Origin: an uncultured virus (IMG/VR IMGVR_UViG_3300037483_001817)
Lineage: Duplodnaviria > Heunggongvirae > Uroviricota > Caudoviricetes
Direction: 5' to 3' (one strand)
DNA length: 42,685 bases
IMG/VR virus record: IMGVR_UViG_3300037483_001817
Shown here: positions 1 to 20,578 of the stretch, piece by piece
How the letters are laid out: each line of letters begins with the position of its first letter
Position numbering within the stretch: position 1 is the stretch's first letter
Notes under the pieces: model-generated
What the model was told of the DNA's origin: nothing
Database searches by the model: none
Seen by the model: the letters and a program-made list of their open reading frames with translations, nothing else
Position numbers and translations under genes: made by a program

Positions 1-2
1 CG

Positions 3-203
3 ATGGAGGACTTCCACGCTGAGATGCGTCGCCGTGGCGTGCGTAAGGATGGCCCACAGATCACGGCTCCCGCAGCAACACAGGTCCCTGACGGCGCGGT
101 CACCAGAATCGTCCGGTGCGGCGTCCACCCGATGCATTTTGTCAGGATCAGCGCGAGTGGCGCTCGCAGTGGCTGCCCCATGTGCGAAGCGGCCAGACGA
201 TGA
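3..203 (+). CDS. hypothetical protein with C-terminal CxxC (probably 5'-truncated by window edge)
   Basis: ORF track; ends CPMC; stop overlaps next ATG (ATGA at 200-203). Confidence 0.55.
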   Translation: MEDFHAEMRRRGVRKDGPQITAPAATQVPDGAVTRIVRCGVHPMHFVRISASGARSGCPMCEAARR

Positions 204-508
204 CGAACCAGAAAGATCTAACCGTGGTGAGTCCACATAACCCACTACCCTTTCGAACCGTGAACGGAGATCCACAGCATGCTCCGAGTGTCGCCCACGA
301 TCGTGCGCGGATCATCACGCGGATCATCGGCTGCACCTGCGGCTGGCAAACGCCGTCCGGCACCACCGATTCCGATGAAGCTTTCACCATGCACTGTGCT
401 GTCGTCAGTGTGCATCCTGGCATGGACGTCTATCTCGAGCTGCGAAACGAACGTGGCATTCCCGCCAAACCACACGCTGCACTTCTGGTCCAAGAGGAAA
501 CTACGTGA
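200..508 (+). CDS. hypothetical protein (CTCGW...H motif)
   Basis: Start re-assigned to ATG 200 (ATGA coupling); GTGA coupling with next gene. Confidence 0.65.
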   Translation: MTNQKDLTVVSPHNPLPFRTVNGDPQHAPSVAHDRARIITRIIGCTCGWQTPSGTTDSDEAFTMHCAVVSVHPGMDVYLELRNERGIPAKPHAALLVQEETT

Positions 509-846
509 GCATCCGCCGTCCCAAGACGAAGACGAAACGCTGCGCGCACTGCAAACGCCGTCGACCCCGCCTCACGATCGAATGGCATCCGGGGATCGAG
601 GAATGGCAATGCTCGAATTTTAGCTCGTGCGACGAGGTGATCTTTCGCAACGAGGCTCGCAAACGCGAACGTGAGCGGCTGCTCCACGCGCGCCTGACCC
701 AGGCTACCGACAAGGCATTCTGGAAGAGCACTCGGTACAAGCCTGGTCAGAAACTCGACATGTCCAACCCACAGGATCGGAAAATGTCTCCGGTTTGGAT
801 GGGCATCTTCCAGCAAAAGCAACGTGAAGCGAAGGAGTCCACATGA
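505..846 (+). CDS. hypothetical basic protein with CxxC...Cx5C putative Zn site
   Basis: GAGG SD upstream, coupled both ends; CAHC and CSNFSSC. Confidence 0.65.
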   Translation: MSIRRPKTKTKRCAHCKRRRPRLTIEWHPGIEEWQCSNFSSCDEVIFRNEARKRERERLLHARLTQATDKAFWKSTRYKPGQKLDMSNPQDRKMSPVWMGIFQQKQREAKEST

Positions 847-1220
847 TTGGTCTCGATGATGACACCCTCAAGAAACGTCGTGTCCCAACGACACCAGAGG
901 ATCCTTCGCTAAGTCGCCTCGTGATGGCCCGATACGTCCTCCCGCCAGCGATCCGCTGCTTCTTCCATGTGTACGAGGAGCGCATCGGCACGTACGGCTT
1001 TCGCGTACTCAAGCACGTGCTGGTCTATCCAGGGAACGCCCGACCCGGGATGACGACGGGCTGCGAGTGCGACGTCCATCCCCATGAATACGTCATCGTC
1101 AGCAACAACATTGTTGTCGACCGGACTTGGTGCCGGGCTTGCGTCGCCGCCGTCGACAGGGAATCGAGACGTGGTCATTCACCAACGCGACGCACGCCAG
1201 CCAAAGAAGAGATCACCTGA
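843..1220 (+). CDS. hypothetical protein (CEC...CRAC)
   Basis: AAGGAG SD, ATGA overlap, TGATG overlap with next gene. Confidence 0.65.
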   Translation: MIGLDDDTLKKRRVPTTPEDPSLSRLVMARYVLPPAIRCFFHVYEERIGTYGFRVLKHVLVYPGNARPGMTTGCECDVHPHEYVIVSNNIVVDRTWCRACVAAVDRESRRGHSPTRRTPAKEEIT

Positions 1221-1946
1221 TGCCACGCCACCAGCAAGTCACGACCTGTCGCAAAGGCGGTCCCGTCGAAAAGTTCTGCAACTGCGAAAACTGCTCGTTG
1301 TCGGTGTGCTCGGTCTGCGGTGCCTACGAAGACGGGCTCACGACCGATTGTCCAGGATTGAAGGTCGCCTTCAACCGTCAGAAGGAGGTCTACGAAACCA
1401 GCCTCGACTACACAGACGAACGTGGCTGGCACCTGGGAGCGCCGATGAAGCGCAGAACGCCGCGCTTCGAATCGACGAAGCTGCTGCCCGAGCTGCCACG
1501 CGTCGATCCGCGGACGGTCATCGCGCCGTCGATCTACTGGGCCGCAGTCGATCGTCATGTGAGTCTCCAGCACGAGCTCGCACAGAAGGCGATCGCATGG
1601 GCGCTTGCAGAAAGCACAGCCGAGGATCACTATCGCCGCGATCACCGGGAAGATCAACCTGCGCGAACCGAACGAGCATACGCAAGAGCTACTCGGCAAG
1701 CTCGAACACGCGAAGCTGGAATTCCGTCTCGCGAACCAGCGTGCAGAGACGTGTGACGACGAGTTCCGGCAAGCAGCAAGGACGCTCGTCACCGCGTTGA
1801 AGGAGGGCCAAGTCGCTGCCGTCGCCAACGATAAGACGCTGTTCACGCGTACGTGCGGCTGCACGGTCGTCGCAGGAGCGGCGTGCCCGCACTTCGTCGC
1901 CGCGAACAGCGGCATCGGGGAACCCCGGAAAACCACAGTTCGGTAA
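1220..1946 (+). pseudogene. Cys-rich/coiled-coil hypothetical protein apparently split by a +1 frameshift near 1634
   Basis: Frame from ATG 1220 is protein-like to ...AEDHY then degenerates (stop 1756); the +1 frame continues AAITGKINLREPNEHTQELLGKLEHAKLEF... to 1946 with no good start of its own. Confidence 0.55.
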
Positions 1947-2084
1947 TCAGCCAAATCCCGCGGGACCCCAGGTGAGATCGGCCCTCAGGATCTGCTAACA
2001 GATCCGCTAACGATACGTTAGACTGTCCCCCAGCTGTGCTGCCATCGCCACGCCGCTCCCGCCGATCCGTGGACTCCTCGACAC

Positions 2085-2100
2085 GGGTACCTATCTACCC
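2085..2100. promoter_or_regulatory. Palindromic operator GGGTA-N6-TACCC (copy 1), upstream of TM-RuvA-III gene
   Basis: GGGTAcctatcTACCC, intergenic, 67 nt before ATG 2168; recurs at 4386, 4441, 40654, 40707. Confidence 0.7.
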
Positions 2101-2167
2101 AGGTTTACTGATCCAAACGTTACCTGCGGTCTCGAGCTGGCCCAGGAGTCGCACCTAGGTTCAAGGC

Positions 2168-2554
2168 ATGCACCCGCTTTCAATGCTATTCGGAGCAGCA
2201 CTCTTCGCCCTCGGCGTTCTCGCCGTCGCGCTCGCAGATCGCATCCGCGGCCTGCGCGTCTCTCGCGATATGGCGCCGCCGCGTGAGCGGGCGCCCCGCG
2301 CGCCTTCGGTCTCCGCCCAGCCCGTCGAGACTGCCGAGCTGCTCCGGTCGACTCTCCCAAAGCCGCCCCGCGCGCCGCGCGCCGAACCGAAGGTCGCCAG
2401 CGCCGAGGACGACGTGATCGCCGCACTCGTGACCGCGGGCTACAAGAAGTCGATCGCGACGGAAGCGGCGTGGGCGTGCAGCCCCGCCGAGCGCACGACG
2501 GTCGAGCGCTGGACGGCGGCAGCACTCCGCTGCGCGCACGGAGGGATGTCGTGA
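2168..2554 (+). CDS. N-terminal transmembrane helix + Pro/Ala linker + RuvA C-terminal (domain III)-like domain
   Basis: Hydrophobic LSMLFGAALFALGVLAVALA; C-terminus AEDDVIAALVTAGYKKSIATEAA...TVERWTAAALR resembles RuvA domain III (AVAALVALGYK...E.LIREALR). Confidence 0.7.
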   Translation: MHPLSMLFGAALFALGVLAVALADRIRGLRVSRDMAPPRERAPRAPSVSAQPVETAELLRSTLPKPPRAPRAEPKVASAEDDVIAALVTAGYKKSIATEAAWACSPAERTTVERWTAAALRCAHGGMS

Positions 2555-2805
2555 GCCGCGTCGGCGTCTACCAGGCCGCAGCCGCTCGCTGTGGCACCAC
2601 GATCGAACGTGCCTCCAACGGCATCCCGCCGCGTATCGGCGGAGGCATCACCAAACACCCTCTCGCGCGAGACGTCGCCGAAACACTCGTCCGTGATCTC
2701 AAGGCGCTCGGTGCAGAGGCGAAGGTTTGCTCCCACGGGCCGCAGGACGATCAGGCGTTCGTCTACCTGTCGGGCTGCTCGTTCCAAAAGGGCGACCTCT
2801 CGTGA
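2551..2805 (+). CDS. hypothetical protein
   Basis: GGAGG SD, GTGA overlap with upstream stop. Confidence 0.6.
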   Translation: MSRVGVYQAAAARCGTTIERASNGIPPRIGGGITKHPLARDVAETLVRDLKALGAEAKVCSHGPQDDQAFVYLSGCSFQKGDLS

Positions 2806-2879
2806 CCAAGTTCAACCTCTCGATCGACCTTCGCACGCACGGTGATAGCGCTAGCGCTACTGCGAGCATGTTCCCATGA
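2802..2879 (+). CDS. 25-aa micro-ORF (MTKFNLSIDLRTHGDSASATASMFP)
   Basis: GTGA overlap at start and ATGA overlap at end; below ORF-track cutoff. Confidence 0.4.
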   Translation: MTKFNLSIDLRTHGDSASATASMFP

Positions 2880-3187
2880 AGGCGAAGCTGCTCGCACCGC
2901 CGCTGCCCCGGCAGCCGATCGTCGATACGATGTGCACGTCGTGCCCATTCAGACCGAACGCAGGCAAGCCAAAGATCAACGTGACGCCGGCAGAGCTGGA
3001 GAAGTTCAAGGACACTGCCCGGCGCAGCGAGTTCTACTGTCACGAGACCGTGCTCGAAGACCCGCGCACGACTGTCGGCGCCGATAGCGAGCCGTCGCCT
3101 CGCGTGCAGTCTCACTTCCGCGTCTGCCGTGGCGGGTGGGGGCTCAAGCTCAAGCACCTCGGAGCAGCGCGACGGAAAGAACAGTAG
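2876..3187 (+). CDS. Cys/His-rich phage protein (CxxCPF...FxCH...CxG, DUF6283-like)
   Basis: CTSCPFR, FYCHET, CRGG motifs. Confidence 0.6.
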   Translation: MKAKLLAPPLPRQPIVDTMCTSCPFRPNAGKPKINVTPAELEKFKDTARRSEFYCHETVLEDPRTTVGADSEPSPRVQSHFRVCRGGWGLKLKHLGAARRKEQ

Positions 3188-3190
3188 CCC

Positions 3191-3517
3191 ATGGTCAAGC
3201 TCGAACGGATCACCGAGGAGACCCTGACGCCCGAGCACACCGAGCGCGTTCGGCGTGCGGTGCTCGGCATCCCCCGCAAGAACTCAGTCCACCGCGCGAT
3301 CCTCGCCGACTGCGCGCGCGTGCTCACCGGTGACAAGGCCGCTCGCGCGACCATCGTGCGCACCTGGAACGCGATGGTCACGCCGATCGACGAGCTGATC
3401 GAAAACTCCTCGCTGGGCGCCGCCATGCGGGACATCAAGGAGCGCGGCCTGGATGCGCACCTCAAGACCCTGGACGAAGAGCTGCGCCCCAAGCGTCGCG
3501 TGCGGAGGAAGCCGTAG
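3191..3517 (+). CDS. hypothetical protein
   Basis: ORF track, high-GC3 codon usage, follows previous stop by 3 nt. Confidence 0.6.
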   Translation: MVKLERITEETLTPEHTERVRRAVLGIPRKNSVHRAILADCARVLTGDKAARATIVRTWNAMVTPIDELIENSSLGAAMRDIKERGLDAHLKTLDEELRPKRRVRRKP

Positions 3518-3574
3518 CGATGTCCAGGCACAACAAACCCTGCTTGCCCAGCTATCACCCAAGTGGAGCGAACG

Positions 3575-3808
3575 ATGCGCGATGAAAGCCCGGGATGGTG
3601 CAAGCCGCGCAAACCGTGCGTCGGGTGCGACGAAATTGTAGCGACTGGAATCAGCTACCAACCGCACACGTGTCTAGCCTCAACGCCTGTCGGGGCGGCT
3701 ATCGGCCTTGGCCCGTGTGCTGAGTGCGAGTCGCTGCGCGACGACCCGTGCCGTTCTCCGAGCAGGCGTACGCGACTGCCCCATGCGGGTCGTAGGAGGG
3801 TTGGATGA
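3575..3808 (+). CDS. Cys-rich hypothetical protein
   Basis: GGAG SD before ATG 3575; CVGC, CAEC; ATGA overlap downstream. Confidence 0.5.
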   Translation: MRDESPGWCKPRKPCVGCDEIVATGISYQPHTCLASTPVGAAIGLGPCAECESLRDDPCRSPSRRTRLPHAGRRRVG

Positions 3809-4152
3809 CAAACGAACCGACCAAGGTGGCAGCGGAGAGCGAGGCTCCCGATCACCGCTTCCTCACGAACATCCACCAACGCAAACTCGAAACCGATCAG
3901 ATGATCCAGCGACGGCGACGGTTCACAAACTACGCCACGCCCGCAGAGAACCTGCCGATGAAGCGATGGACCGCGGGAATCGCCGCGCTACGCCGGTTCG
4001 CTGCCGGCGAACGATGGAATCGCCGCACGAGGCGGCTCACCGTGCAGCGCCTCTACGTCGAGGGGCTGATCGATGATGTCGGCGATGACTACAACTGGAA
4101 AATAACCGAAGCCGGCAAGGAGTTCCTGTTCCGGCTCGACGGAGGCTGCTGA
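3805..4152 (+). CDS. hypothetical protein, C-terminal winged-helix-like ending
   Basis: AGGAGG SD; VQRLYVEGLI...WKITEAGKEFL is typical of a wHTH wing. Confidence 0.6.
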   Translation: MTNEPTKVAAESEAPDHRFLTNIHQRKLETDQMIQRRRRFTNYATPAENLPMKRWTAGIAALRRFAAGERWNRRTRRLTVQRLYVEGLIDDVGDDYNWKITEAGKEFLFRLDGGC

Positions 4153-4382
4153 TGGGTCGTCACGACCACGTCCACGTCCACGCGTCCGAGACCCGCGTCG
4201 ACGTCGTGTGCGAGTCCTGTCAGGCGCCGATCAACGTCGCGTGCTCATGTGCCGAAGGAACCCTGACGTCGGACCGAGCAACGTCTGACCGTGCGTCCGA
4301 GACCCGCGTCGACGTCGTGTGCGAGTCCTGTCAGGCTCCGGTCGGAGTCGCGTGCACGTGCGCCGACGGAGTTTTCACGTGA
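4152..4382 (+). CDS. small duplicated Zn-ribbon-like protein (2x ASETRVDVVCESCQAP..VACxCAxG)
   Basis: GGAGG SD, TGATG overlap; internal repeat with a 37-codon period. Confidence 0.65.
   Translation: MGRHDHVHVHASETRVDVVCESCQAPINVACSCAEGTLTSDRATSDRASETRVDVVCESCQAPVGVACTCADGVFT
4182..4336 (+). repeat. 44-bp perfect direct repeat (4182-4225 and 4293-4336)
   Basis: GCGTCCGAGACCCGCGTCGACGTCGTGTGCGAGTCCTGTCAGGC twice, period 111 nt. Confidence 0.9.
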
Positions 4383-4385
4383 CCG

Positions 4386-4456
4386 GGGTACTTCGATACC
4401 CGGCTCAGCACCGCCACGCGATGTGTGAACCGCGAGCTCTGGGTAGCTACCTACCC
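4386..4456. promoter_or_regulatory. Paired operators GGGTA-N6-TACCC (4386-4401, 4441-4456) upstream of ruvB
   Basis: GGGTActtcgaTACCC and GGGTAgctaccTACCC, intergenic; proximal box ends 65 nt before ATG 4522. Confidence 0.75.
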
Positions 4457-4521
4457 ACGGTCACCTCTCGCGAACTTACGTGCAGATCGGACCGGCACGC
4501 GGGTCGCATTGAAGGATTGCC

Positions 4522-5559
4522 ATGAACGCTCCTGCACTCCGCCTCGTTCCCGACGCGTCTCCGCACTCGACCCGCTCGACGGCGACGGCAGAGGATCCGG
4601 CCCTCCGCCCGACCTCGTTCGACGACTACATCGGCCAGGCAGACGTGATCGCGAACCTGCGCCAATCGGTTCGCGCCGCCAAGCGCGGCGGCTGGCAGCT
4701 CGACCACATGCTGTTCGGTGGTCCTGCGGGCCTCGGCAAAACCTCGCTCGCGGCAGTCGTCGCGGCCGAGCTGGGCGGAAAGTTCCGAGCGACCTCAGCC
4801 CCCGCGATCGAGCACAAGGGTGCCCTCGCGTCGCTGCTCACCACGCTGGAGGACGGCGACGTCCTCTTCATCGACGAGATCCACGCGCTCGATCGCGCCG
4901 TCGCCGAGTGCCTGTATTCGGCCATGGAGGATCGCGTGATCGATCTGCCGGCTGGCAAGCGGGTCATCCGCGTGCCACTGCCAAAGTTCACGCTGCTCGG
5001 AGCCACGACCCACGCAGGCAAGCTCTCCAAGCCGCTGCTCGATCGCTTCGGCTTCATCTGGCAGCTCAAGCCCTACACGCTGCCCGAGCTGGCAACGATC
5101 CTCGCCCGATCGGCGAGAAAGCTCGGCGTCGCGATCGACGAAGAAGGCGCTCTCGCAATCGCGGGGGCATCTCGCGGCACCCCGCGCATCGCCAACCGCC
5201 TGTTGCGCCGCGTGCGTGACGTCGCCGCGAACGCCGCGGACGACGGTGCGCTCGTCCTGGGCGGACTCGAAGACCTGACGTGCGCGAACGGTACCGTCAA
5301 CGGTCCGCTCGTAGTCGCCGCGCTCGCGCAGCTCGGCATCGATCACCTGGGCCTCGACTCGCTCGATCGCCGCTACCTCGCGGTCGTGCTCGATCGCCCG
5401 GTGGGCATCGAGGCGATCTGCGCCGAGCTGGCCGAAGATCGCAGCACGATCGAGGACGCCGTCGAGCCCTTCCTCATGCAGGCGGGACTCATCAAGCGCG
5501 GCGGCAAGGGGCGCCTCGCCACGGAAGCGGGCCGCACGCACCTCGCGGAGGTTGCATGA
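4522..5559 (+). CDS. ruvB: Holliday junction branch migration AAA+ ATPase RuvB (divergent)
   Basis: LRPTSFDDYIGQ, Walker A GPAGLGKT, Walker B LFIDEIH, LYSAMED, FTLLGATT, DRFG, SRGTPRIANRLLRRVRD, PVG..TIED.VEPFL. Confidence 0.95.
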   Translation: MNAPALRLVPDASPHSTRSTATAEDPALRPTSFDDYIGQADVIANLRQSVRAAKRGGWQLDHMLFGGPAGLGKTSLAAVVAAELGGKFRATSAPAIEHKGALASLLTTLEDGDVLFIDEIHALDRAVAECLYSAMEDRVIDLPAGKRVIRVPLPKFTLLGATTHAGKLSKPLLDRFGFIWQLKPYTLPELATILARSARKLGVAIDEEGALAIAGASRGTPRIANRLLRRVRDVAANAADDGALVLGGLEDLTCANGTVNGPLVVAALAQLGIDHLGLDSLDRRYLAVVLDRPVGIEAICAELAEDRSTIEDAVEPFLMQAGLIKRGGKGRLATEAGRTHLAEVA

Positions 5560-5978
5560 TGCGAGGCGCGGACGATATCCACCGCCTCTTCCAGAGTGCG
5601 GCGCAGGTCATCATGAACCCTGTGCTCCGGGACGGTATCGTCACTGGCGCAGACGGGCGGAAGGCCATCGACTATGCCGCCTGCGTGACCTTCGCGATCG
5701 AGTGCCCTCCAATCGACACTCCTTGTGCGCCAACGACGCGAGAGGCTGCCCTCCCCCAGATCCTGCTCCAGGGTCCCTTCAAGGGTGCGCCCACCCTTCA
5801 GGGAGTGGTCTTCTACATCGGCATCGGTTTCATCACGCTTCGCGAGGTCAGTGCCAAGCGCTGCTCCTACGAGATAACCGGGATCAATGGCGATGGCCTC
5901 GAAGCGCGTCTCGCGTTCCTATTGGCAGCCCGTGACCTCTTCTTCAACGACGTACAGCTTGAGAGGAATCCCTCGTAG
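5556..5978 (+). CDS. hypothetical protein, paralog of 6364-6747
   Basis: GGAGG SD, ATGA overlap with ruvB; shares LFxSAA, LLxGPFxG, FYxGIGFI, GDG, AARDLFF. Confidence 0.75.
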   Translation: MMRGADDIHRLFQSAAQVIMNPVLRDGIVTGADGRKAIDYAACVTFAIECPPIDTPCAPTTREAALPQILLQGPFKGAPTLQGVVFYIGIGFITLREVSAKRCSYEITGINGDGLEARLAFLLAARDLFFNDVQLERNPS

Positions 5979-5980
5979 CC

Positions 5981-6361
5981 ATGAGCAACCTTGCCGTGCC
6001 GAAGGACCTCGGCGATGCCGGTCGTCGTGCCTACGCGATCATCACGGCATACCTCCAAGAGCACGACTGCGCCGACACCGGCGGCTGCAAGGCGTTCTAC
6101 TCGCCGGCCGAATGGAGCGCACGGAACGAAGCCTACGGCACGAAGTCGCATCTCGTTGTCGTGCACGGAGGGGCGATGCGCTCGGTGTTCAGCATGGACG
6201 CTGCGTACGACCTCGACTGCGCCGTCTACGAAGAGACCGGACAGCCACACGCGCCGTACTCGCTGTACGACGGCATGCAGGCGAAGCTCCGTGCGGCGGG
6301 ACTCTACTTCGAGGAGTGCACCCGCGGGTATTGTGCGATCTACAGCGTTGAGGGCGCCTAA
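5981..6361 (+). CDS. hypothetical phage protein
   Basis: ORF track, protein-like composition, in operon. Confidence 0.7.
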   Translation: MSNLAVPKDLGDAGRRAYAIITAYLQEHDCADTGGCKAFYSPAEWSARNEAYGTKSHLVVVHGGAMRSVFSMDAAYDLDCAVYEETGQPHAPYSLYDGMQAKLRAAGLYFEECTRGYCAIYSVEGA

Positions 6362-6363
6362 CC

Positions 6364-6747
6364 GTGCCGAGACACGCCAACGACATCGACAACCTCTTCC
6401 GCAGCGCGGCAGAGGTCCTGGTCACGCTGGAAGCGCAGCAGAAGTACGAGGCATGGGCCGACGCAATCGATGCCCCTGCGATGAGACCTTCTGTCCCGAC
6501 GACGCGCGCGAATGCCGTCCCGGACGTCCTGCTCCGCGGACCGTTCGAGGGGACCCCAGACCTGATCGCAGTGGCCTTCTACCCTGGCATCGGCTTCATC
6601 GAGATCAGCAAGCTTGACGTCGTGTACTGCACCTACTTGACAACGGTAATCGATGGGGACGGCATCCAGGAGCGCGATACGTTCCTGATGGCAGCCCGCG
6701 ATCTCTTCTTCCACGACGTCAAGTTTCAACAGGAGATCCACGCGTGA
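6364..6747 (+). CDS. hypothetical protein, paralog of 5556-5978
   Basis: Shared motifs as above. Confidence 0.75.
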   Translation: MPRHANDIDNLFRSAAEVLVTLEAQQKYEAWADAIDAPAMRPSVPTTRANAVPDVLLRGPFEGTPDLIAVAFYPGIGFIEISKLDVVYCTYLTTVIDGDGIQERDTFLMAARDLFFHDVKFQQEIHA

Positions 6748-7091
6748 ACACGTCCACCTCCGTCCCCACCGAGCTGCTCGTCCTGTCCGGCAAGGGCATT
6801 CGCATCGGCCTTGTGGGCCACTACGGCCTGTTCGATGAGACGCCGACCTTCGAGGCTGCGGTCAAGCTGGCCCGCGCGTACATCGCCAAGCACAACGGAA
6901 ACGCCCGCGGATTCGTCGCGATCCGGATCGAGGCCGCGGTCATCGACGGCATCGGTGACGGTACCGATCGCGAGCTGGTCCGCTTCGAGGTCTACCCCGA
7001 TCGTGTCGCACTGGTGCCGGTCGAACAGGGCGGCCTTTCCGATGCGCAGAAGGCGAAGGCACACGCACTGCCGAAGAAGGGACTGCTATGA
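6744..7091 (+). CDS. hypothetical protein
   Basis: AGGAG SD, GTGA overlap. Confidence 0.7.
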   Translation: MNTSTSVPTELLVLSGKGIRIGLVGHYGLFDETPTFEAAVKLARAYIAKHNGNARGFVAIRIEAAVIDGIGDGTDRELVRFEVYPDRVALVPVEQGGLSDAQKAKAHALPKKGLL

Positions 7092-7591
7092 AAGAACAGT
7101 ACCTGCGCGCGCTCGTGCGAATTTGCCGCCAGCTCGGCGGACGGCTCGCGATCGTCTCGCAGCAAGCGTACGACGACTTGTTCCACGATCGCGATGCCAA
7201 GCACATCGACGGCAATCTACATGATTCTCCGTTCACGGCCGCGCACGGCCTGCACTGGAATCGCAAGATCATCTACACGGTCCGCGGACGCGAAGAGGTC
7301 GGCTCGATTATCCACGAGATGGGCCACGTATTCGCCGACGTGCATCATCCCGAGCATGTTGAGTGTCGCGAATGGAGCTGGCTCGGTTGGGAGATCGCGC
7401 TCGCGCGTCAAATCGGAGCGGGACGCACGTGGTCGCGACAGAACGGCGACTACGTCACCGGTGAGACCGGATGTAACGAATGGGGGACGCTCACCGCAAA
7501 GCAGCGCCGCGCCGTCGTCTCCGATCGCCTCGCCTGTGCGCGTACGATCGGCGTATTCGACGCTGCCGGTATTCCGAGGAGCATCCGATGA
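7088..7591 (+). CDS. putative HExxH zinc metallopeptidase-like protein
   Basis: IIHEMGHVFA followed by downstream Glu residues. Confidence 0.55.
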   Translation: MKEQYLRALVRICRQLGGRLAIVSQQAYDDLFHDRDAKHIDGNLHDSPFTAAHGLHWNRKIIYTVRGREEVGSIIHEMGHVFADVHHPEHVECREWSWLGWEIALARQIGAGRTWSRQNGDYVTGETGCNEWGTLTAKQRRAVVSDRLACARTIGVFDAAGIPRSIR

Positions 7592-8133
7592 CCGCCGAAG
7601 AAGGCCCTCTTGTGATGCGACGTCAGCCACCGTGCGCGCCGTATTATCTCATCACCAACATCGCCAACGTGACGCTCACGGGCGGCACCCCGAACGTCTA
7701 CGGATCCACGGACGTGCACCTCCACGTCTCAGCGATCCTCCTTGCGCGTGAGGAACACTCCGTGCGCGATAAAGCCACGTGCCGGATCCGTCTCTTCGGT
7801 CCTGACGCCGCGTGGCCGATCACCGAACTCGCCGCCACGTCGCTCGACCACACGATCACTTCGATCCCCTGCGATATACCTGGCGTGGTCGTGATCCAGA
7901 GCCTCTACGCCTTGCGCGTCGACAGTCGCTGGAACCTCAAGCTCCGCACCGAGTCGGAAGACGGAGCGCCACCCGAGGTCACCGCGTATCCAGACGGTAC
8001 GCCGATCGAAAACGTCTGGCAGGACCTGCGTGCGAAGGTTGCCAAGCACTGGTCGGCTCCCAACATGCCCATCCTCGAATGGGTACCGGCTGACTACGTG
8101 AGGCAGCTGCGCAAGACCGTGAAGGAATCGTAA
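7588..8133 (+). CDS. hypothetical protein
   Basis: GAGGAG SD, ATGA overlap; start re-assigned to 7588. Confidence 0.65.
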   Translation: MTAEEGPLVMRRQPPCAPYYLITNIANVTLTGGTPNVYGSTDVHLHVSAILLAREEHSVRDKATCRIRLFGPDAAWPITELAATSLDHTITSIPCDIPGVVVIQSLYALRVDSRWNLKLRTESEDGAPPEVTAYPDGTPIENVWQDLRAKVAKHWSAPNMPILEWVPADYVRQLRKTVKES

Positions 8134-8442
8134 ATGCCCAGTAACTGCATGACCCGCATCTTCACGCTCGAATACGAACACACGTGGCCAGTAGAGCGCT
8201 GGTCTGATGATCTCATTCTCGCGCCTGATGTCCCACAGGAGATCTGGGGAGAGGACGCTGGGAAGCCAACGGGCCAAAGGTTTTTGCGTGACGTATCGGC
8301 TGTGCGGAATCACGAGCACGCTTGGGAGATCGTACGTTCTGACGCTCGCCCTGGTTTCGGAACCGTCCTGCACTCGGTGACGCCGCAAACGCACGAGTAC
8401 GTCAGCCAAGGGTTCCGCAGGAAGGATCACCGTGCCCCGTAA
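8134..8442 (+). CDS. hypothetical protein
   Basis: Abuts previous stop; ORF track. Confidence 0.5.
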   Translation: MPSNCMTRIFTLEYEHTWPVERWSDDLILAPDVPQEIWGEDAGKPTGQRFLRDVSAVRNHEHAWEIVRSDARPGFGTVLHSVTPQTHEYVSQGFRRKDHRAP

Positions 8443-8614
8443 CTGGTGTCCGCCATCGCGCCGTGGCCACACATGGCAAGAGCTGCCTCTCGTACCGCCG
8501 TCGCAAGGCGGCCCGAACATCCGCCAACTGTTCGCGCTGCGCCGATGCGCACGCTGCCAGGCGCTCGGGCGCGTGAACAAGAACGGCCTCATCGACGTCG
8601 TGGAGAAGCCGTGA
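8432..8614 (+). CDS. small Cys-containing hypothetical protein
   Basis: AAGGA SD; HTW...CARC. Confidence 0.5.
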   Translation: MPRNWCPPSRRGHTWQELPLVPPSQGGPNIRQLFALRRCARCQALGRVNKNGLIDVVEKP

Positions 8615-8841
8615 AAAGGAAGCGCCACGCCAAACGTACGATCGTCGTCGACGGCGTCACGTACACCTGGAAGTACGGCGACTGGGTCGAGATCCGTCGC
8701 GGTCGTGCCGTCGTGTTCCGGCGTCCCATCACCGACATCCTCGGCATCACGTGGGAGGCCCTAGAGCGCGGAGAGCGCAAAGGCTACGGCTTTCCGCTCA
8801 CCCCCAAGCGCGTGGCCGCACTGATCAAGGAACTACCATGA
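8611..8841 (+). CDS. hypothetical phage protein (RTIVVDGVTYTW...TPKRVAALI)
   Basis: GGAG SD, GTGA overlap; start re-assigned to 8611. Confidence 0.65.
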   Translation: MKRKRHAKRTIVVDGVTYTWKYGDWVEIRRGRAVVFRRPITDILGITWEALERGERKGYGFPLTPKRVAALIKELP

Positions 8842-9095
8842 CCCTCACCGACTCCGACGTGCGCACCATCATCCACGAGCTGCTCGACAGCAAGAGCGTG
8901 CCCACCCACGATCGCACGCGCTACGTGCGTGAGAACCGGAACTCGGTCGCGTTCCTGCGCGCGCTCCCGGCCCTCGTCGATCGCTACCTCAAGATCGTCG
9001 ACCCGCCGCGCACATGCCAGGTCGAGCACGACCACTGGGAGGGACCGATGATCTGCGGCAACACGCTGCCCTGCTCGCGACACGGAGGGCGCTGA
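8838..9095 (+). CDS. hypothetical protein with C-terminal Cys/His motif
   Basis: AAGGA SD, ATGA overlap; CGNTLPCSRH. Confidence 0.6.
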   Translation: MTLTDSDVRTIIHELLDSKSVPTHDRTRYVRENRNSVAFLRALPALVDRYLKIVDPPRTCQVEHDHWEGPMICGNTLPCSRHGGR

Positions 9096-9099
9096 TTTC

Positions 9100-9681
9100 A
9101 TGAGCCGGAAGAAACCGCCATCGAGCTTTCCTGCGCGTAGCGTCGTGTTCACGAACCTCGACCACGTGGTTGTTCGTGGCCTCAGGCTGACGTGCCAAAC
9201 GATTGTGATCAACGACGATCCCGATCTGAACGAGGGAAAAGAACGCCGCTTTCGTCTCGACGGCTACGGCACGACCTGCGTATGGCACGTCTTCTCGATG
9301 ACGTTGCGATCGAACAAGCACAAATGGGCGCCGATCGCCACTCCCAAGGGCGGCCCGTCGTTGCGCGGTGTGCTGCATGTCGATGCGAACGATGCAGAAG
9401 GATTCACAAGCCTCCAACTCGTGACTCGAGATTGGGATCGCGGCGTCCGCGTTCAGAGCTTCACCGGCAGTTGGACGCCGCGGCCCGACAACGCGGCGGA
9501 CGCTGATGCCCCGACGGACTGGCACGACTACAACCAACGCGTCATGCGTTGCGTCTTCGAGCAGAGCTGCGCCGAAACGTCCGCGCCGAACATGCTCATC
9601 GCACTAGCGATGCCGCCTGACACAGCGCGCCGGTTGCTCGATGCCGATGGCTCATCGTTCCGCTCACTGCCCAATCACTAG
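9100..9681 (+). CDS. hypothetical protein
   Basis: GGAGG SD; ORF track. Confidence 0.65.
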   Translation: MSRKKPPSSFPARSVVFTNLDHVVVRGLRLTCQTIVINDDPDLNEGKERRFRLDGYGTTCVWHVFSMTLRSNKHKWAPIATPKGGPSLRGVLHVDANDAEGFTSLQLVTRDWDRGVRVQSFTGSWTPRPDNAADADAPTDWHDYNQRVMRCVFEQSCAETSAPNMLIALAMPPDTARRLLDADGSSFRSLPNH

Positions 9682-9957
9682 ATGTCAAAGAACCTCAACA
9701 TGCCGCGCTTCCAGCTCAAAGTCTGGACCTCTCCGAAAGGAGTACGCCTCCCCGTGGGCTTCGGAATGCTCGTCGGTATGACCCACATCAGTGCGACGGT
9801 CATCGGAGCCAACACAGTTCAGTTCGTGCGCTTCACCATCGATGAATGGAACAAGCTTCCGATCTTTTGGTTCAAGGAAGATGGCGTGTATGACGGCCCG
9901 CGGCAATCCACGGAGATCCCTCCCCCTGCCAAGAAAGCAAGGAAAGACAGTCATTGA
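9682..9957 (+). CDS. hypothetical protein
   Basis: Abuts previous stop; ORF track. Confidence 0.55.
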   Translation: MSKNLNMPRFQLKVWTSPKGVRLPVGFGMLVGMTHISATVIGANTVQFVRFTIDEWNKLPIFWFKEDGVYDGPRQSTEIPPPAKKARKDSH

Positions 9958-10541
9958 TGACGAAGATCTGGCTCGACTGGTCTGACGGTCGCTACTCGAC
10001 CCGCCTGCTCACTGACGAAGAGGCGCAGGAGCGTGAGGCCATGAACCTCGACGTCGCGTACGTCGAAGACACGATCTGGCAGGCGTACCTCCGTGACTGC
10101 GAGCGCGACGCCATCTGGCAGGCGTACTGGCGAGCCATCAGCAACGAACACTACATGCGTCGGCGCGAGAAAGAGCTGCAACCTCTCGAGGACGCCCAGC
10201 GCGAGATCGAACGCCTCAAGTACGAGTTGGCGACAGCCAAGCGCATGGAAGCGTTCTACGAGGAGCAATACGCGAAGAACCTCAGAGATCGACACCGCGA
10301 GAAGTACGTCGAATACACCTGCATTTTTCCTCAGCCCGGCTGCAAGATCGAAGTCCTCCGGCCCGAGTGGCAGGAGAGAGCGCAGGAAATCATGGAGCAG
10401 TACAACGCGGCACGCATGGAGGGCAGCCTAAAGTATCAGGGCTGCTGCTGCGGCCACGAGCACAAGCTGCTCGATGCCGTGGAAGCCGGCATGCTCCGCG
10501 CCGCAGGCTTTCTCGTCGAGAACGCCACGGAGGTCGTGTAA
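9957..10541 (+). CDS. hypothetical coiled-coil protein with C-terminal GCCCGHEH motif
   Basis: TGATG overlap; Glu/Arg-rich helical middle. Confidence 0.7.
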   Translation: MTKIWLDWSDGRYSTRLLTDEEAQEREAMNLDVAYVEDTIWQAYLRDCERDAIWQAYWRAISNEHYMRRREKELQPLEDAQREIERLKYELATAKRMEAFYEEQYAKNLRDRHREKYVEYTCIFPQPGCKIEVLRPEWQERAQEIMEQYNAARMEGSLKYQGCCCGHEHKLLDAVEAGMLRAAGFLVENATEVV

Positions 10542-10544
10542 CAC

Positions 10545-10889
10545 GTGTCATCTCCGACGGAAGCCACGCACGTCCGTGCGACGCATCGCTACTATCCGAG
10601 TCGCGTACGCTTCGTCGGTACGATCCCCCACGGCAGAAACTTGCGTGAGATTGCGATCGACGTCGATCCCGAGCTGATCCTACGCATCGCAGACGCCCTT
10701 CGGGCGACGGACGGCGGTCGGAAATGCTTCTGGGTTGGTGGAAATGGTCCTCGCCATCCCAACCCGTACGGGAACATCGGCCACGCGCTGTGGCACGTGG
10801 AGAACCCCGATCACCCAATGCCTTGCATCGATCACTCGACCGTCATCGACGTCGGCTCACTCCCCGCAGGAACCCCGGAGGACAAGTGA
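10545..10889 (+). CDS. hypothetical protein
   Basis: GGAGG SD; ORF track. Confidence 0.55.
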   Translation: MSSPTEATHVRATHRYYPSRVRFVGTIPHGRNLREIAIDVDPELILRIADALRATDGGRKCFWVGGNGPRHPNPYGNIGHALWHVENPDHPMPCIDHSTVIDVGSLPAGTPEDK

Positions 10890-11068
10890 AACTCTTGGTC
10901 CCGGAGCGAACGGCGTTGTCGCAGATCCGCATGGCCCGACCGCATCGAGGAAGGTCTGAAATGTGCCAGGACTGCTGCGCCTACGAGTACAAACTGCTCG
11001 ACAACGCGGCAGCTCAGAAGCTCCGCGACGCAGGCTTTCTCGTCGAGTACGACACCGAGACCCAGTAA
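10886..11068 (+). CDS. short protein whose C-terminus duplicates the end of 9957-10541 (possible remnant)
   Basis: CCAYEYKLLD...KLRDAGFLVE vs CCGHEHKLLD...MLRAAGFLVE; GGAGG SD, GTGA overlap. Confidence 0.5.
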   Translation: MKLLVPERTALSQIRMARPHRGRSEMCQDCCAYEYKLLDNAAAQKLRDAGFLVEYDTETQ

Positions 11069-11083
11069 AGAGGAGCCGAGGAA

Positions 11084-11323
11084 ATGATCACCGCGTTCAT
11101 GTCTGACAACGAGTTGCACGGCGTCTACGTCATCCGCCGGGAAGGGTTGACGAAGATTCGCGCGGGAGGCTTCTGCGGCAAAGAGGACGACGCCGGCCCT
11201 GGCGTCTACCAGGTCCCCGAGTGGGCGTTCGACGGGCGGCCCACGTACGGCCCGCCCGGTGGAGAGATCACCGTATGCGCCAAGTGCTCGCACACCGTCG
11301 TGTCCCTGAAGCACCCCAGGTGA
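11084..11323 (+). CDS. hypothetical protein with C-terminal CxxC
   Basis: GAGGAG SD; CAKC. Confidence 0.6.
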   Translation: MITAFMSDNELHGVYVIRREGLTKIRAGGFCGKEDDAGPGVYQVPEWAFDGRPTYGPPGGEITVCAKCSHTVVSLKHPR

Positions 11324-12828
11324 TGCTGATGTCCACCACCTCCGACGACGAGCGAACCGGGCCGAAGCTCTCCGATCCAACCACGATCGATGCGGAGAAC
11401 CCGTTCGGCTCGACCGACGAAGGCACCAAGGTTGACATTGAGCGGCAGACCCAGCTGACGTTGGAGCCGCAGACCTCGCTCGTGCGCCGAAATAGCTTCC
11501 GCGAGCTGCCGCCCGGATCGGTCGTCGGCGATACCTACGAGATCGACGCGCGCCTCGGAGCAGGTGCCATGGGCGAGGTCTACGCGGCGAGGCACGTCAA
11601 CCTCGGCAAGCGCGTCGCGATCAAGGTGATCGGCCAGCGCCTCTCCGATGACGCCGACGCGATCGAGCGCTTCACGATGGAGGCGCGCACGCTCGCGCAG
11701 ATCCAGCACCCTGCGATCGTGGCTGTCGAGCACGTCGGAGAGCTGGCCGACGGACGCGCGTATTTCGTGATGGAGTTCTTGCGCGGGGAGTCGCTGTTCG
11801 AAAGACTCCAGCGTGGTCGCGTGTCATTGCCCGAGGCACTTCGCATCCTCGACCAAATGGCGCGCGGACTCGACGCTGCACACGGCGAGGGAGTTACCCA
11901 CCGCGATCTCAAGCCGGAGAACACGTTCTTGGTTCAGTTGCCCGGCGAACCGCCGACCATCAAGCTCCTCGACTTTGGCTTGGCGAAGCTTGCCGCGGAC
12001 CACGCTGGCCACGCCGACGTCGATCGTCGTGCAGAGCGCACGCAGAGCGGCGTCGCGATCGGCACGCCGATGTACATGTCCCCCGAGCAGATGCGCGGCC
12101 CTGACGTCGATCACCGCACCGACATCTATGCGCTCGGCTGCGTCGCGTACGAGCTGGTGCTCGGTGTCCCGCCCTTCGCACACGCCAAGACCACGCCTGA
12201 GCTCTACGCGGCGCACCTGCACGAAGCACCCCCGCTACCGAGATCGATCTGGCCGGAGATTCCTCCGCAGCTCGACCTCGCGCTGTTCGCGTTGCTCGCC
12301 AAGGATCCGGCGCACCGCCCCACACTCGCGCAGTTCCGGGCAGTCATCGCAGGCACACGAGTGACGACACCGTCGCAACGTGCGGCCACCGAGTTCGTCG
12401 GCCCTCGCGCGCCGATCACGACGGCACGGAAGCTGACCATCCTGACGGTCATGGTGATCGCGATTGCCGCCCTGATCGGCGGAATCTCGATCGGAATGAA
12501 GCTGCTCTCCGTGTCGAAAGGTCCGCCATCCCCGACCGCACCGATCACACCCACTGCACCGAAGATCGCGTCGCCGGCAGTGCTGCCGCCAGACGTGCCC
12601 GCACCCTCGCCCGTCAAGACTCCGCGCGTCGCGGAGCCGGTGCGATCGCCATCGGCACCGTCGCGTGGAACGAAAGGTGGCAACAGCTCGAAAAAGCCGC
12701 CGACTGTGCCGCAAAACGTTGCCAGCGACGCCGGGGTCGAGCCCGATCCTTCACAGGCACCGAAGTATCCACCCGTTGTCGATCGCAACCAGACCATCAA
12801 CCCGTTCAAGCGCAAGGTGAGCCCGTGA
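11323..12828 (+). CDS. Hanks-type Ser/Thr protein kinase, membrane-anchored, Pro-rich C-terminal tail
   Basis: LGAGAMGEVY, VAIK, HRDLKPEN, DFGLAK, GTPMYMSPEQ, DIYALG; TM ILTVMVIAIAALIGGISIG; tail ending INPF; start set at TGATG overlap. Confidence 0.95.
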   Translation: MLMSTTSDDERTGPKLSDPTTIDAENPFGSTDEGTKVDIERQTQLTLEPQTSLVRRNSFRELPPGSVVGDTYEIDARLGAGAMGEVYAARHVNLGKRVAIKVIGQRLSDDADAIERFTMEARTLAQIQHPAIVAVEHVGELADGRAYFVMEFLRGESLFERLQRGRVSLPEALRILDQMARGLDAAHGEGVTHRDLKPENTFLVQLPGEPPTIKLLDFGLAKLAADHAGHADVDRRAERTQSGVAIGTPMYMSPEQMRGPDVDHRTDIYALGCVAYELVLGVPPFAHAKTTPELYAAHLHEAPPLPRSIWPEIPPQLDLALFALLAKDPAHRPTLAQFRAVIAGTRVTTPSQRAATEFVGPRAPITTARKLTILTVMVIAIAALIGGISIGMKLLSVSKGPPSPTAPITPTAPKIASPAVLPPDVPAPSPVKTPRVAEPVRSPSAPSRGTKGGNSSKKPPTVPQNVASDAGVEPDPSQAPKYPPVVDRNQTINPFKRKVSP

Positions 12829-17683: not shown

Positions 17684-17722
17684 CCAAAAACCGGCGAAGT
17701 CTACCAAAAACCGGCGAAGTCT
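17684..17722. repeat. 19-bp tandem duplication CCAAAAACCGGCGAAGTCT; near-identical copy at 18983-19000
   Basis: Copies at 17684-17702 and 17704-17722; both loci lie upstream of collagen genes. Confidence 0.85.
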
Positions 17723-18090
17723 TACTGCGTACGCCCGTACCGATCTTCCAGCCTCACAACATCCTCCAGTTCTGGTGTCGACACCTCGAGCACGTCTGTA
17801 TCTACGACGGCTAGCATCCGATGCCGCAGACCAGGAGCGATGTGGAACGGCTCACGCGGTCCCAGCTCGCGGACACGCGGCTCCTCACCCTCGGCGAAGA
17901 ACTCGAACCTGAGCTGACCGGAAAGGACCATGATCGTCTCGTCCTTCACCAAGTGGTACTGGAGCGACAGGGCCTCCCCAGCTTTCACATGGAGGATCTT
18001 ACCGACGTAGCGCGAGGTCTTGGCCCAGATCAGCTCATGGCCCCAGGGCTTGTCGACGACCGTGGACTTGAAATTCGTGGGTTCTTGCAC
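17722..18090 (-). CDS. cupin, mannose-6-phosphate isomerase type II C-terminal-like
   Basis: VDKPWGHE, LSLQYH..KDET, PGLRHRM, LEVST...DVVRLED.YGR; start set to GTG 18090. Confidence 0.85.
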   Translation of the reverse strand: MQEPTNFKSTVVDKPWGHELIWAKTSRYVGKILHVKAGEALSLQYHLVKDETIMVLSGQLRFEFFAEGEEPRVRELGPREPFHIAPGLRHRMLAVVDTDVLEVSTPELEDVVRLEDRYGRTQ

Positions 18091-18116
18091 GCGCACTACA
18101 TTACCGCGTGGAGGTA

Positions 18117-18950
18117 CTACGAGTACTCCTCGATGATCCAAATGCCCGGCGACCCATCACCACCGTCGTGTGGGGGATCGTTGTTCGCGGATGCGGCGCC
18201 GCTGCCGCCAGCGCCATTGCCGCTCGCATCAAGACCATCACCCGTGGTGTTGGCCAGGCTGCGACCACCGACGCCGAAGTTGCCGCTCCCTCCGAAGCCG
18301 CCCAAAAGGCCGACGTTGCTGAGCTGAAGCCCGAACCCAGCACCGCCTAAGGTACAGGCTTGGTAATCGCCATCAACGGGCACGCCCTGCGCCGTTGGCC
18401 CGATGACGATAGGCGGAATGAAGCCAGATCCGCCCGTGTCTCCACCCGCACCTCCCCGCGCCGTCAACAGCACTCCACCGATCAGTAGCGTCGAGTCGCC
18501 GCCGTTGGAAGGCGAGCCATTACCGATCATACCGGGAGCGCCGACACCGACCGTGACGGGACCACCAGTCAAGAACGTATTGGGAGGCGCCACGCTTCGA
18601 ACCTCGATCGCGACACCCGAGTTCCCGCCAGGAGCTCCAGCGACGGCAGTTGGATTGGTGGCCCCGATGCCGCCACCGCCACCACCACCACCACTGCCAC
18701 GCACGATCGCCGAGCGTGTGCCTGGCGTGGGGGTGTACGTGCCGCTACCAGCTACGTCGAAAACTTGGCGACCAAGCAACGCACCAGCTTCTGGTCCGGT
18801 CGGACCCGTCGGACCCGTCGGTCCGGTGGCGCCGTCATCACCGCGGTGACCACGGTGGCCGCGGTGGCCGCGGTGACCACGCTCTCCGCGCTCGCCGCCC
18901 TTGCCTTCACAGTCATCGCAGTCCGGAATGCGGGGCGTTGAATCAGCCAT
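18117..18950 (-). CDS. collagen-like protein with glycine-rich phage fibre-type C-terminal domain
   Basis: Same leader MADSTPRIPDCDDC + G-X-Y; SGTYTPTPGT..IVRGSGGGGGGG...GDGSPGIWIIEEYS. Confidence 0.85.
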   Translation of the reverse strand: MADSTPRIPDCDDCEGKGGERGERGHRGHRGHRGHRGDDGATGPTGPTGPTGPEAGALLGRQVFDVAGSGTYTPTPGTRSAIVRGSGGGGGGGGIGATNPTAVAGAPGGNSGVAIEVRSVAPPNTFLTGGPVTVGVGAPGMIGNGSPSNGGDSTLLIGGVLLTARGGAGGDTGGSGFIPPIVIGPTAQGVPVDGDYQACTLGGAGFGLQLSNVGLLGGFGGSGNFGVGGRSLANTTGDGLDASGNGAGGSGAASANNDPPHDGGDGSPGIWIIEEYS

Positions 18951-19016
18951 GCATGAAGGCTATCAGCGCTCTCGTTCGAAGGCCAAAAACCGGAGAAGTC
19001 GAGCTATACATCAGAC

Positions 19017-19400
19017 ATGTCCGCCGTGATCAAGGTGCCGTTCACGCGCCTGGTCCTGGGCCACCACGAAATCGGCTGTCACCGCGGTCGACGATGGGGC
19101 TTTCGCCAGGTGTTTGGCTTTCCCACACTCCAGAACTTACCCTTCATCCACCTGGGAAGCAGGGTCAAGCGCGCCTACGAAGGCAAGGACACGCCGAGAC
19201 ACGAGGGCTGGCCTGCCCAGCGCGAAGCGATCCAATGGCTCGTCGACCGCGGACGTGACGAAATCTACGCACTCGACAAAAACGGCATCAACGTCAAAGC
19301 CACGCCGTTTCGCAGCTACGCCATCACCGATGGCAACCATCGCGCGCTCGCCCTCTACATCTTGGGCGAAAGCTTGGTTCTGGCGCGCGTCAAAAATTGA
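19017..19400 (+). CDS. ParB/Srx N-terminal-like domain protein
   Basis: YAITDGNHRALALYILG resembles the ParB/Srx DGxHR motif. Confidence 0.55.
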   Translation: MSAVIKVPFTRLVLGHHEIGCHRGRRWGFRQVFGFPTLQNLPFIHLGSRVKRAYEGKDTPRHEGWPAQREAIQWLVDRGRDEIYALDKNGINVKATPFRSYAITDGNHRALALYILGESLVLARVKN

Positions 19401-19884: not shown

Positions 19885-19889
19885 ATTCG

Positions 19890-20438: not shown

Positions 20439-20578
20439 GGCCCGTTATCTCACGACGCAAGATTGCTCGCCAGAACCACCCGTCAGCGCCGCCGCGGTGC
20501 GCGGCGCTCGGCGTACGTCAAACACGATCGGCTCACCAGGAGATGCCGAGCCCGGTGCACTCATGGCAAAAATGTTTT

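Follow-up and report, generated by a model that had tools for sequence, protein, structure and literature searches.

We have analysed a stretch of DNA of 42,685 nucleotides (hereafter the window) from an uncultured virus of the class Caudoviricetes, the IMG/VR record IMGVR_UViG_3300037483_001817, in which a small gene at 2168-2554 encodes a predicted membrane protein that ends in domain III (D3) of RuvA, and in which a gene for the AAA+ motor RuvB follows on the same strand. For its putative transmembrane (TM) helix and its D3, we call the small protein TM-D3. We propose, with a probability of about 0.5, that it is a membrane-tethered adaptor cognate to the downstream phage RuvB. The features on which this proposal draws are the following, where AF2 stands for AlphaFold2 and pLDDT for its predicted local distance difference test score.

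2168..2554, + strand: TM-D3 gene, encoding a 128-aa protein, predicted to be a single-pass membrane protein, with RuvA D3 at its C-terminus
2177..2236 (aa 4-23), + strand: predicted TM helix, based on Kyte-Doolittle hydropathy, flanking charges, the AF2 helix and invariant alignment columns
2402..2530 (aa 79-121), + strand: RuvA domain III-like three-helix domain, based on the Pfam alignment, PDB profile matches, Foldseek and a pLDDT of 83-89
4522..5559, + strand: RuvB, AAA+ double-stranded DNA (dsDNA) translocase of 345 aa, based on Pfam RuvB_N, AAA_lid_4 and RuvB_C and on NCBIfam equivalogs

The open reading frame (ORF) of TM-D3 is a genuine coding sequence, since its G+C fraction is higher at third than at second codon positions (0.83 versus 0.61) and its product has homologues in 190 clusters, at E≤0.01, of a protein collection clustered at 90% identity. 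Its C-terminal domain we accept, judging from sequence profiles and a structural model, as homologous to RuvA D3, and we do so because of matches at the level of the family, not because of the window sequence on its own. The Pfam family RuvA_C (PF07499) aligns to aa 79-121 of the window protein over profile positions 2-44 of 47. It is matched individually by 25 of the 35 close family members (best E-value 7.7e-6) and, at E≤0.1, by 46 of 55 diverse members (best 7.9e-8); each of the other Pfam families is matched by three members at most. When the family profile built from the diverse alignment was compared with the PDB, the top ten matches were all RuvA, led by an isolated D3 (7x7p_C, E 6e-4). 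Likewise, in a Foldseek search with the AF2 model, RuvA D3 took all of the first ten places, 7pbl_G aligning with a template modelling score of 0.83 and a root-mean-square deviation of 1.8 Å (47 columns, 32% identity); the weak Foldseek E-values are a consequence of the shortness of the domain.

These comparisons bear on a rival view, according to which TM-D3 is a small membrane protein, for example for lysis timing or superinfection exclusion, that ends in a generic three-helix bundle of the UBA-like kind and has no functional tie to RuvB. The domain is indeed short and its E-values are modest, 3 of the 55 diverse members also match UBA models, and two of the nine informative related loci described below have no RuvB nearby. 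However, RuvA outranks UBA domains by every method, and the synteny, the common upstream motif and the sister-group RuvBs set out below speak against it as well; we hold this view to be very unlikely. No trace of the remainder of RuvA was found in TM-D3: RuvA_N (domain I, OB fold) gave no Pfam match at E≤1, nor was there a Pfam match to HHH_5 (domain II, helix-hairpin-helix), aa 34-77 being a disordered linker. As domains I and II are absent, TM-D3 is not a RuvA.

The N-terminal part of TM-D3 has the properties expected of a membrane anchor. The most hydrophobic 19-residue Kyte-Doolittle window (2.43) spans aa 4-22, and the corresponding peak is at least 1.89 in 35 of 35 aligned relatives. TM-D3 itself has no lysine or arginine before this segment and four after it. 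Among the relatives, the 15 residues preceding the segment are free of lysine and arginine in 34 of 35 sequences, and the 15 residues following it contain three to five in all 35. Applied to these flanking charges, the positive-inside rule predicts an N-out/C-in topology, with D3 in the cytoplasm. Cleaved Sec signal peptides have the opposite charge pattern. Because it has no positive n-region, a hydrophobic stretch of ~20 residues and positive charges only thereafter, the N-terminus of TM-D3 does not look like a signal peptide of this kind. In the AF2 model, a helix covers aa 3-33 (pLDDT 86-90), aa 47-62 are disordered (pLDDT <50) and the C-terminal domain folds into three helices (pLDDT 83-89); the 44-residue linker between them, aa 34-77, contains ten prolines, eight alanines and six arginines. 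Six positions (G9, L12, V13, G16, A21 and D24) do not vary in our alignment A1 and are conserved to 90% or more in the wider alignment A3, and R27 is invariant. G9 and G16 are seven residues apart on the same face of the helix, a face that could mediate helix-helix pairing. A preliminary description of this DNA, made from its letters alone, had recognised a TM helix, a Pro/Ala linker and D3 in this gene, and Kyte-Doolittle analysis, AF2, the family profiles and Foldseek all bear out this anatomy.

TM-D3 belongs to a sizeable family with a uniform architecture. When 1.84 billion representatives were searched exhaustively with the family profile, 279 clusters, counted at 50% identity, were obtained at E≤0.001, 201 of them at E≤1e-10. 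Among the best 150 of the 279 representatives, which are 62-182 aa long, a segment with a 19-residue Kyte-Doolittle value of at least 1.6 is present in 144 and the C-terminal domain in 147, and 135 pass an automatic test for a TM segment preceding the C-terminal domain. The 15 representatives that do not pass comprise six envelope artefacts that have both parts, eight apparently truncated proteins and P0362, in which a Cys-rich zinc-ribbon N-terminus is joined to the C-terminal domain without a TM helix; as this N-terminus resembles the product of a conserved upstream gene (1127-1756 in the window), P0362 is probably a deletion fusion. No TM-D3 of greater length or fused to another protein turned up at E≤0.001, which is weak evidence. 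Among the matches listed in the 90%-identity collection, homologues are 123-181 aa long, and the largest of their contigs measures 531,777 bp; the cluster with the TM-D3 of the window is on a contig of 288,627 bp. A pattern scan of 185,579 species genomes detected the family once, on a 2.9-kb contig of a metagenome-assembled genome. TM-D3 corresponds to no family in PHROGs or NCBIfam, full-text searching of the literature yielded no paper on a membrane-anchored D3, and database labels are at most the automatic "RuvA C-terminal domain-containing protein" and one JGI name.

The second partner of the proposed pair is encoded at 4522-5559, and thus about 2 kb downstream, as stated in the preliminary description; that description had also called this RuvB divergent, which was overstated, as the protein passes both equivalog cut-offs of NCBIfam, scoring 362.1 bits against NF000868 (cut-off 282) and 323.6 bits against TIGR00635 (cut-off 299.05). 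In Pfam it matches RuvB_N (1e-54), AAA_lid_4 and RuvB_C. All motifs are in place, namely Walker A (GPAGLGKT, 67-74), Walker B (LFIDE, 115-119), sensor 1 (GATT, 160-163), the Arg finger (DRFG, 174-177), sensor 2 (RGTPR, 218-222) and a basic C-terminal hairpin (KRGGKGR, 325-331), and the catalytic and DNA-hairpin motif columns are invariant among 34 sequences. For the counterpart of the latter hairpin in P. aeruginosa RuvB, excerpts of PMC10071043 describe DNA contacts via R314, R317 and R319. By its sequence, the window RuvB is thus to be regarded as orthodox and intact. Compared with E. coli RuvB, four residues are absent at the tip of the presensor-1 hairpin and another four near aa 292, and ~16 residues are added between the lid and the winged helix. 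RuvB-like genes are rather frequent in IMG/VR, where relatives of this RuvB, 24-49% identical to it, are encoded at 44 loci (L016-L059). These loci lie on contigs of up to 441 kb and nearly all are without a RuvA neighbour; many of the RuvB-like proteins have a presensor-1 hairpin that is shorter than the canonical one.

The case for a functional connection between the two proteins builds on gene order, a shared upstream motif and phylogeny. In the window, ruvB starts 1,968 nt after the TM-D3 stop codon, on the + strand. We recovered 13 related loci, of which the nine with at least 0.9 kb of sequence downstream of TM-D3 are informative. RuvB is encoded downstream of TM-D3 in seven of these nine and, with L005 and L006 being near-identical, in six independent cases. 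In these loci, ruvB overlaps TM-D3 by 4 nt in L009 (according to the ORF call), lies ~3-6 nt away in L011, ~180 nt in L002 (an IMG/VR phage contig) and ~0.4 kb in L004 and L005/L006, and is separated by ~2.5 kb in L008. Since relatives have the two genes close together or abutting, the genes between TM-D3 and ruvB in the window are best read as insertions into an ancestral ruvA-ruvB-like pair. As a crude sign that the two genes reside on the same contigs, 32 entries agree in exact contig size between the TM-D3 and RuvB matches listed (119 and 120 rows, respectively).

Both genes are, moreover, preceded by copies of a 16-bp palindrome with the consensus gacacGGGTA-N6-TACCCagg, which are located in the window as follows.

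2085..2100, + strand: palindrome GGGTACCTATCTACCC, 83 nt 5' of the TM-D3 start codon
4386..4401, + strand: distal ruvB copy of the palindrome, 136 nt 5' of ruvB
4441..4456, + strand: proximal ruvB copy of the palindrome, 81 nt 5' of ruvB
40654-40669 and 40707-40722, + strand: third pair of copies of the palindrome, 53 nt apart, 5' of gene 40848-41201 (+ strand, DUF2158)

The core pattern GGGT-N8-ACCC occurs at six sites in the window, where 0.39 are expected, and none of 100 shuffled sequences contained six or more; the sixth site, inside a glycosyltransferase gene, is probably there by chance. Among related loci, L003-L008 and L011 have the palindrome 89-168 nt 5' of TM-D3, and in L013 the distance is 349 nt. 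A pair of copies with a spacing of 54-63 nt precedes ruvB in L004, L005/L006 and L008, which are all four other loci with separated genes, while L011, a locus with abutting genes for which sequence 5' of them is available, has its sole site 5' of TM-D3. A copy in front of either gene of a separated pair, and in front of just the leading gene of an abutting pair, is a distribution that fits a common promoter or operator; the pair close to the DUF2158 gene suggests that this gene may form a small regulon with TM-D3 and ruvB. The palindrome is missing from the divergent loci L001, L002, L010 and L012. To our knowledge, it does not match any LexA box. Scans of window positions 1500-6500 for sigma-70 promoters and terminators found none. 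A perfect 7-bp inverted repeat at 1978-1996 (GGATCTG-CTAA-CAGATCC), situated within the 220 nt that separate gene 1605-1946 from TM-D3, could form a terminator-like or operator-like hairpin. In the clade of the window RuvB, many database entries (P0125-P0232) are 380-512 aa long; we considered the longer ones (393-512 aa) as possible D3 fusions and rejected this, their extensions being upstream non-coding sequence read through by gene callers. The region concerned is the conserved non-coding stretch that contains the palindrome pair.

Our RuvB tree comprises 37 rows; it omits L020, whose translation has an internal stop, and 16 IMG/VR loci that are duplicates, partial or very divergent. In this tree, the window clade (support 100/99) and the RuvB of L025 are sisters (94/72). 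L025 and L002 are one contig, which represents the sole further phage with a D3, so that the RuvBs of the two D3-bearing lineages appear, with moderate support, as sister groups. Synteny, the shared palindrome and the sister-group RuvBs together lend real support to a functional pairing of TM-D3 and RuvB, as far as it can be read from sequences.

The same evidence is relevant to a second alternative, which the preliminary description had already raised. TM-D3 could be an anti-host decoy: by trapping the RuvB of the host at the membrane, it would shut down host RuvABC, and the phage's own RuvB would evade capture through its altered hairpin and take over. An isolated D3 is a RuvB-binding module, according to excerpts of PMC9477746 and PMC2628435, and the hairpin tip of the phage RuvB is shorter by the four residues mentioned above. 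A decoy, however, does not need an anchor, yet a hydrophobic segment is found in 144 of the 150 best representatives; operon-like abutment and a motif shared by the promoter regions are better suited to cognate partners; and the segment that is putatively helix α3 of the phage RuvB is close to the E. coli sequence in the alignment. In addition, TM-D3 has a small residue at the position of RuvA L170, where, going by excerpts of PMC2628435, such a change in E. coli abolishes the action on canonical RuvB. The decoy idea is weakened by these points, and we judge it decidedly unlikely; conservation of the anchor, operon-like abutment and the shared motif are what weighs most against both this idea and that of a protein unrelated to RuvB.

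How a membrane-tethered adaptor might work can be derived from bacterial RuvAB. As described in excerpts of PMC9477746, D3 of RuvA binds to a hydrophobic surface formed by helix α3 and the presensor-1 hairpin of RuvB, and acts as a nucleotide-exchange factor and ATPase activator for the motor. It couples RuvB to the junction-bound core, and it is this tether that permits DNA to be pulled, RuvB without it just walking along DNA (PMC9477746, same excerpts). The pair studied here would go back to a ruvA-ruvB operon whose RuvA gave up its domains I and II, which bind the junction, in exchange for a lipid anchor. A short N-terminus would be located outside, and a ~45-residue linker of Pro, Ala and Arg would place D3 in the cytoplasm, where it would recruit RuvB subunits and act on their ATPase cycle as in RuvAB. 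The membrane would then replace the RuvA-Holliday-junction core as the fixed point from which the hexamer pulls duplex DNA. The outcome would be a two-protein, membrane-tethered dsDNA translocase of FtsK-like logic, which the phage might use on its own DNA, be it for replication and recombination at the membrane or to cope with a genome of great length. We prefer this adaptor reading because a membrane anchor in place of the junction core preserves the fulcrum while dispensing with specificity for junctions. What the sequences show is the architecture, the homology to D3, its conservation in the family, the synteny, the upstream motif common to both genes and an intact RuvB; the topology, the binding of D3 to RuvB, the tethering and the DNA on which the motor acts are elements that we infer, and a DNA-pump function of the pair is a matter of inference only. 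In a bolder version, which we think unlikely, large soil phages would have converted a recombination motor into an FtsK-like two-component pump. A dimerising TM helix with two D3s would anchor and activate a RuvB hexamer on the cytoplasmic side of the membrane, and duplex DNA would be reeled past this fixed point without Holliday junctions; the pump might serve to draw in what is left of a very long genome once ejection has occurred, or to move or segregate genomes after replication.

The element that carries the pair is probably a large tailed phage, and its source probably a large soil phage. L002, a distant member of the family, lies on the IMG/VR contig G001, which is 36 kb long, has a CheckV completeness of 31% and encodes TerL (1e-116), a UvsX-like recombinase, SbcCD, a single-stranded DNA-binding protein (SSB) and a RusA-like resolvase. 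In the ESM Atlas, the closest clusters bear the label Viruses/Uroviricota, but their scores of 0.79-0.86 are below the bar of 0.9 and thus provide a lead only. PHROG matches in the window comprise a Ser/Thr kinase, a glycine-rich protein, 2-oxoglutarate (2OG) oxygenases, glycosyl- and methyltransferases and a MerR/excisionase-like protein. Against 50,697 phage records, megablast of window positions 1-12000 and tblastn of TM-D3 both remained without a match; when two further proteins of the window were compared with the phages by tblastn, one had no match and the other a weak match to a glycosyltransferase.

With such a gene set on G001, it is conceivable that the pair still carries out branch migration of Holliday junctions during recombination-dependent replication, aided by another junction binder or needing none, and that the anchor merely sets a site at the membrane. 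The UvsX-like recombinase, SbcCD, SSB and RusA-like resolvase of this D3-bearing contig would fit such a role, as would the orthodox, equivalog-level RuvB of the window and a small coupled ORF (2551-2805, see below) that accompanies TM-D3 in three lineages. Against it, this coupled ORF is missing from most loci, and the domains that bind junctions in RuvA are not to be found: RuvA_N, HHH_5, RuvC and RusA had no match in the 70 ORF translations of the window, in which no resolvase was seen and, as the preliminary description had it, no full ruvA or ruvC, and neither RuvA_N nor a helix-hairpin-helix was found in 59 ORFs of related loci or in G001. On balance, we consider branch migration a rather unlikely role for the pair.

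The adaptor reading can be compared with several known systems. FtsK unites a RecA-fold motor and several TM helices in one polypeptide. TM-D3 and RuvB would share with FtsK/SpoIIIE a membrane anchor, a long Pro-rich linker and a hexameric dsDNA pump, but they are two proteins with an AAA+ motor and one TM helix, and the analogy is one of design only; FtsK_SpoIIIE had no match in TM-D3 or the window RuvB in Pfam and NCBIfam. The membrane protein p16.7 of phi29 organises replication and binds DNA and terminal protein directly. Like TM-D3, it is a small phage protein in which an N-terminal TM helix and a spacer precede a cytoplasmic domain through which DNA transactions are recruited to the membrane; in TM-D3, however, the cytoplasmic domain is predicted to be a motor-docking module. 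By descent, the pair is a RuvAB derivative. With bacterial RuvAB (PDB 7pbl-7pbt, 7x7p/7x7q and 1ixr/1ixs; excerpts of PMC9477746 and PMC10071043) it has in common that D3, preceded by a flexible linker, is encoded upstream of a hexameric AAA+ translocase with its catalytic and DNA-contact motifs retained. It differs in having a single TM helix instead of RuvA domains I and II, which provide junction binding and tetramerisation, in the small residue at the L170 position, in the RuvB hairpin shortened by 4 aa and the ~16-aa insertion between lid and winged helix, and in its phage, not cellular, context with no ruvC nearby. The orphan RuvBs of IMG/VR phages, finally, are also phage-borne and without a canonical RuvA, but, except for L025, they are not accompanied by TM-D3.

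Several observations weigh against the adaptor reading. The preliminary description had aligned the C-terminus with D3 by eye and pointed to RuvA_C as the profile to compare it with. This identification holds for the family, whereas the window protein alone reaches only 14.6 bits (E 0.048), below the gathering cut-off of 24 bits; hhalign of A3 against the canonical RuvA of L017 aligned the right region, with an E-value of 0.042 and a probability of 1.2%. In a register set by hand, L87 of TM-D3 occupies the position of E. coli RuvA L167 and is conserved, and G91-Y92 of the L-x-x-L-G-Y helix of RuvA_C, the conserved hydrophobic helix in contact with RuvB, are retained. The position of L170, however, is taken by A90, and by Ala, Ser, Cys or Met in the A3 rows shown. 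In E. coli, both L167A and L170A abolish RuvB activity in vivo (excerpts of PMC2628435, citing Nishino 1998). On the RuvB side, the presensor-1 hairpin, a docking element for D3, has 18 residues between AMED and FTL, compared with 22 in canonical RuvB. The Ala at the L170 position and the shortened hairpin caution against plain canonical docking; either the D3-RuvB interface has co-adapted, or docking may take a different form. A hairpin of 18 residues is also present in the IMG/VR RuvBs of L020 and L022, which have no D3 neighbour, and for this reason we rejected the short hairpin as a signature of D3 partnership.

Gene context adds to these reservations. The co-occurrence with ruvB that the preliminary description had looked to in related contigs is not seen in two of the informative loci, no RuvB being encoded in the 3.1 kb between TM-D3 and the contig end of L003 or in the 4.4 kb downstream of TM-D3 in L010. 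Among the 44 IMG/VR RuvB loci, TM-D3 is present in one (L025). A Pfam search of the ORFs upstream of RuvB in the 38 non-duplicate IMG/VR loci identified a RuvC-RuvA-RuvB operon only in L017 (and its duplicate L018), and no hidden TM-D3-like proteins were seen in the upstream ORFs of the other loci. Since neither RuvA nor TM-D3 is encoded close to most phage-borne RuvB relatives in IMG/VR, a phage RuvB may be able to do without a D3. Phage hallmark genes, too, are lacking in the window.

Should the adaptor reading be correct, the RuvB motor could be re-targeted by exchanging its fixed point, and the pair would represent a simple two-protein system for probing the fulcrum model and, for phage biology, a new kind of membrane-associated DNA motor. 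TM-D3 also bears on the question why many phage contigs have RuvB without RuvA.

The window has a G+C content of 59-66%. Its first 19 kb are occupied by short genes on the same strand, the majority of them without a family match, and it contains neither a tRNA nor an Rfam family. The gene next to TM-D3 is the coupled ORF referred to above.

2551..2805, + strand: 84-aa ORF, whose GTG start codon overlaps the TM-D3 stop codon (GTGA)

Homologues of this ORF with 49-53% identity abut TM-D3 on its opposite side in L010 (5214-5459, ATGA overlap) and L012 (~50-298), and it is absent from loci other than the window, L010 and L012. It has no Pfam or Atlas match, and its AF2 model (pLDDT 60.6) is too poor for a fold search; we describe it as an accessory neighbour of TM-D3. 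Between TM-D3 and ruvB, gene 4152-4382 (+ strand) encodes a 76-aa protein with two CxxC-rich, zinc-ribbon-like repeats, which stem from a 78-nt direct duplication (4182-4259 and 4293-4370, 88% identical). At the other end of ruvB, the ATG of gene 5556-5978 (+ strand) overlaps the ruvB stop codon (ATGA). Its product is a paralogue of that of 6364-6747 (+ strand; 42% identity, 136 aa, E 7e-35), with ORF 5981-6361 (+ strand) lying between the two; no family was found for it, and among related loci it has a homologue in L008 only. Further downstream, gene 11221-12828 (+ strand) encodes a Ser/Thr protein kinase of 535 aa (Pkinase, 3e-47), whose position downstream of ruvB is conserved in L004 (14645-16324) and L006 (8255-9883) at 56-64% identity. 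A block of sugar- and methyl-modification genes, mostly on the minus strand, extends from 17722 to 34614 and contains a cupin, two 2OG-Fe(II) oxygenases, TylF-like and other methyltransferases, several glycosyltransferases and a 1205-aa protein that combines FkbM-methyltransferase, glycosyltransferase and TPR regions.

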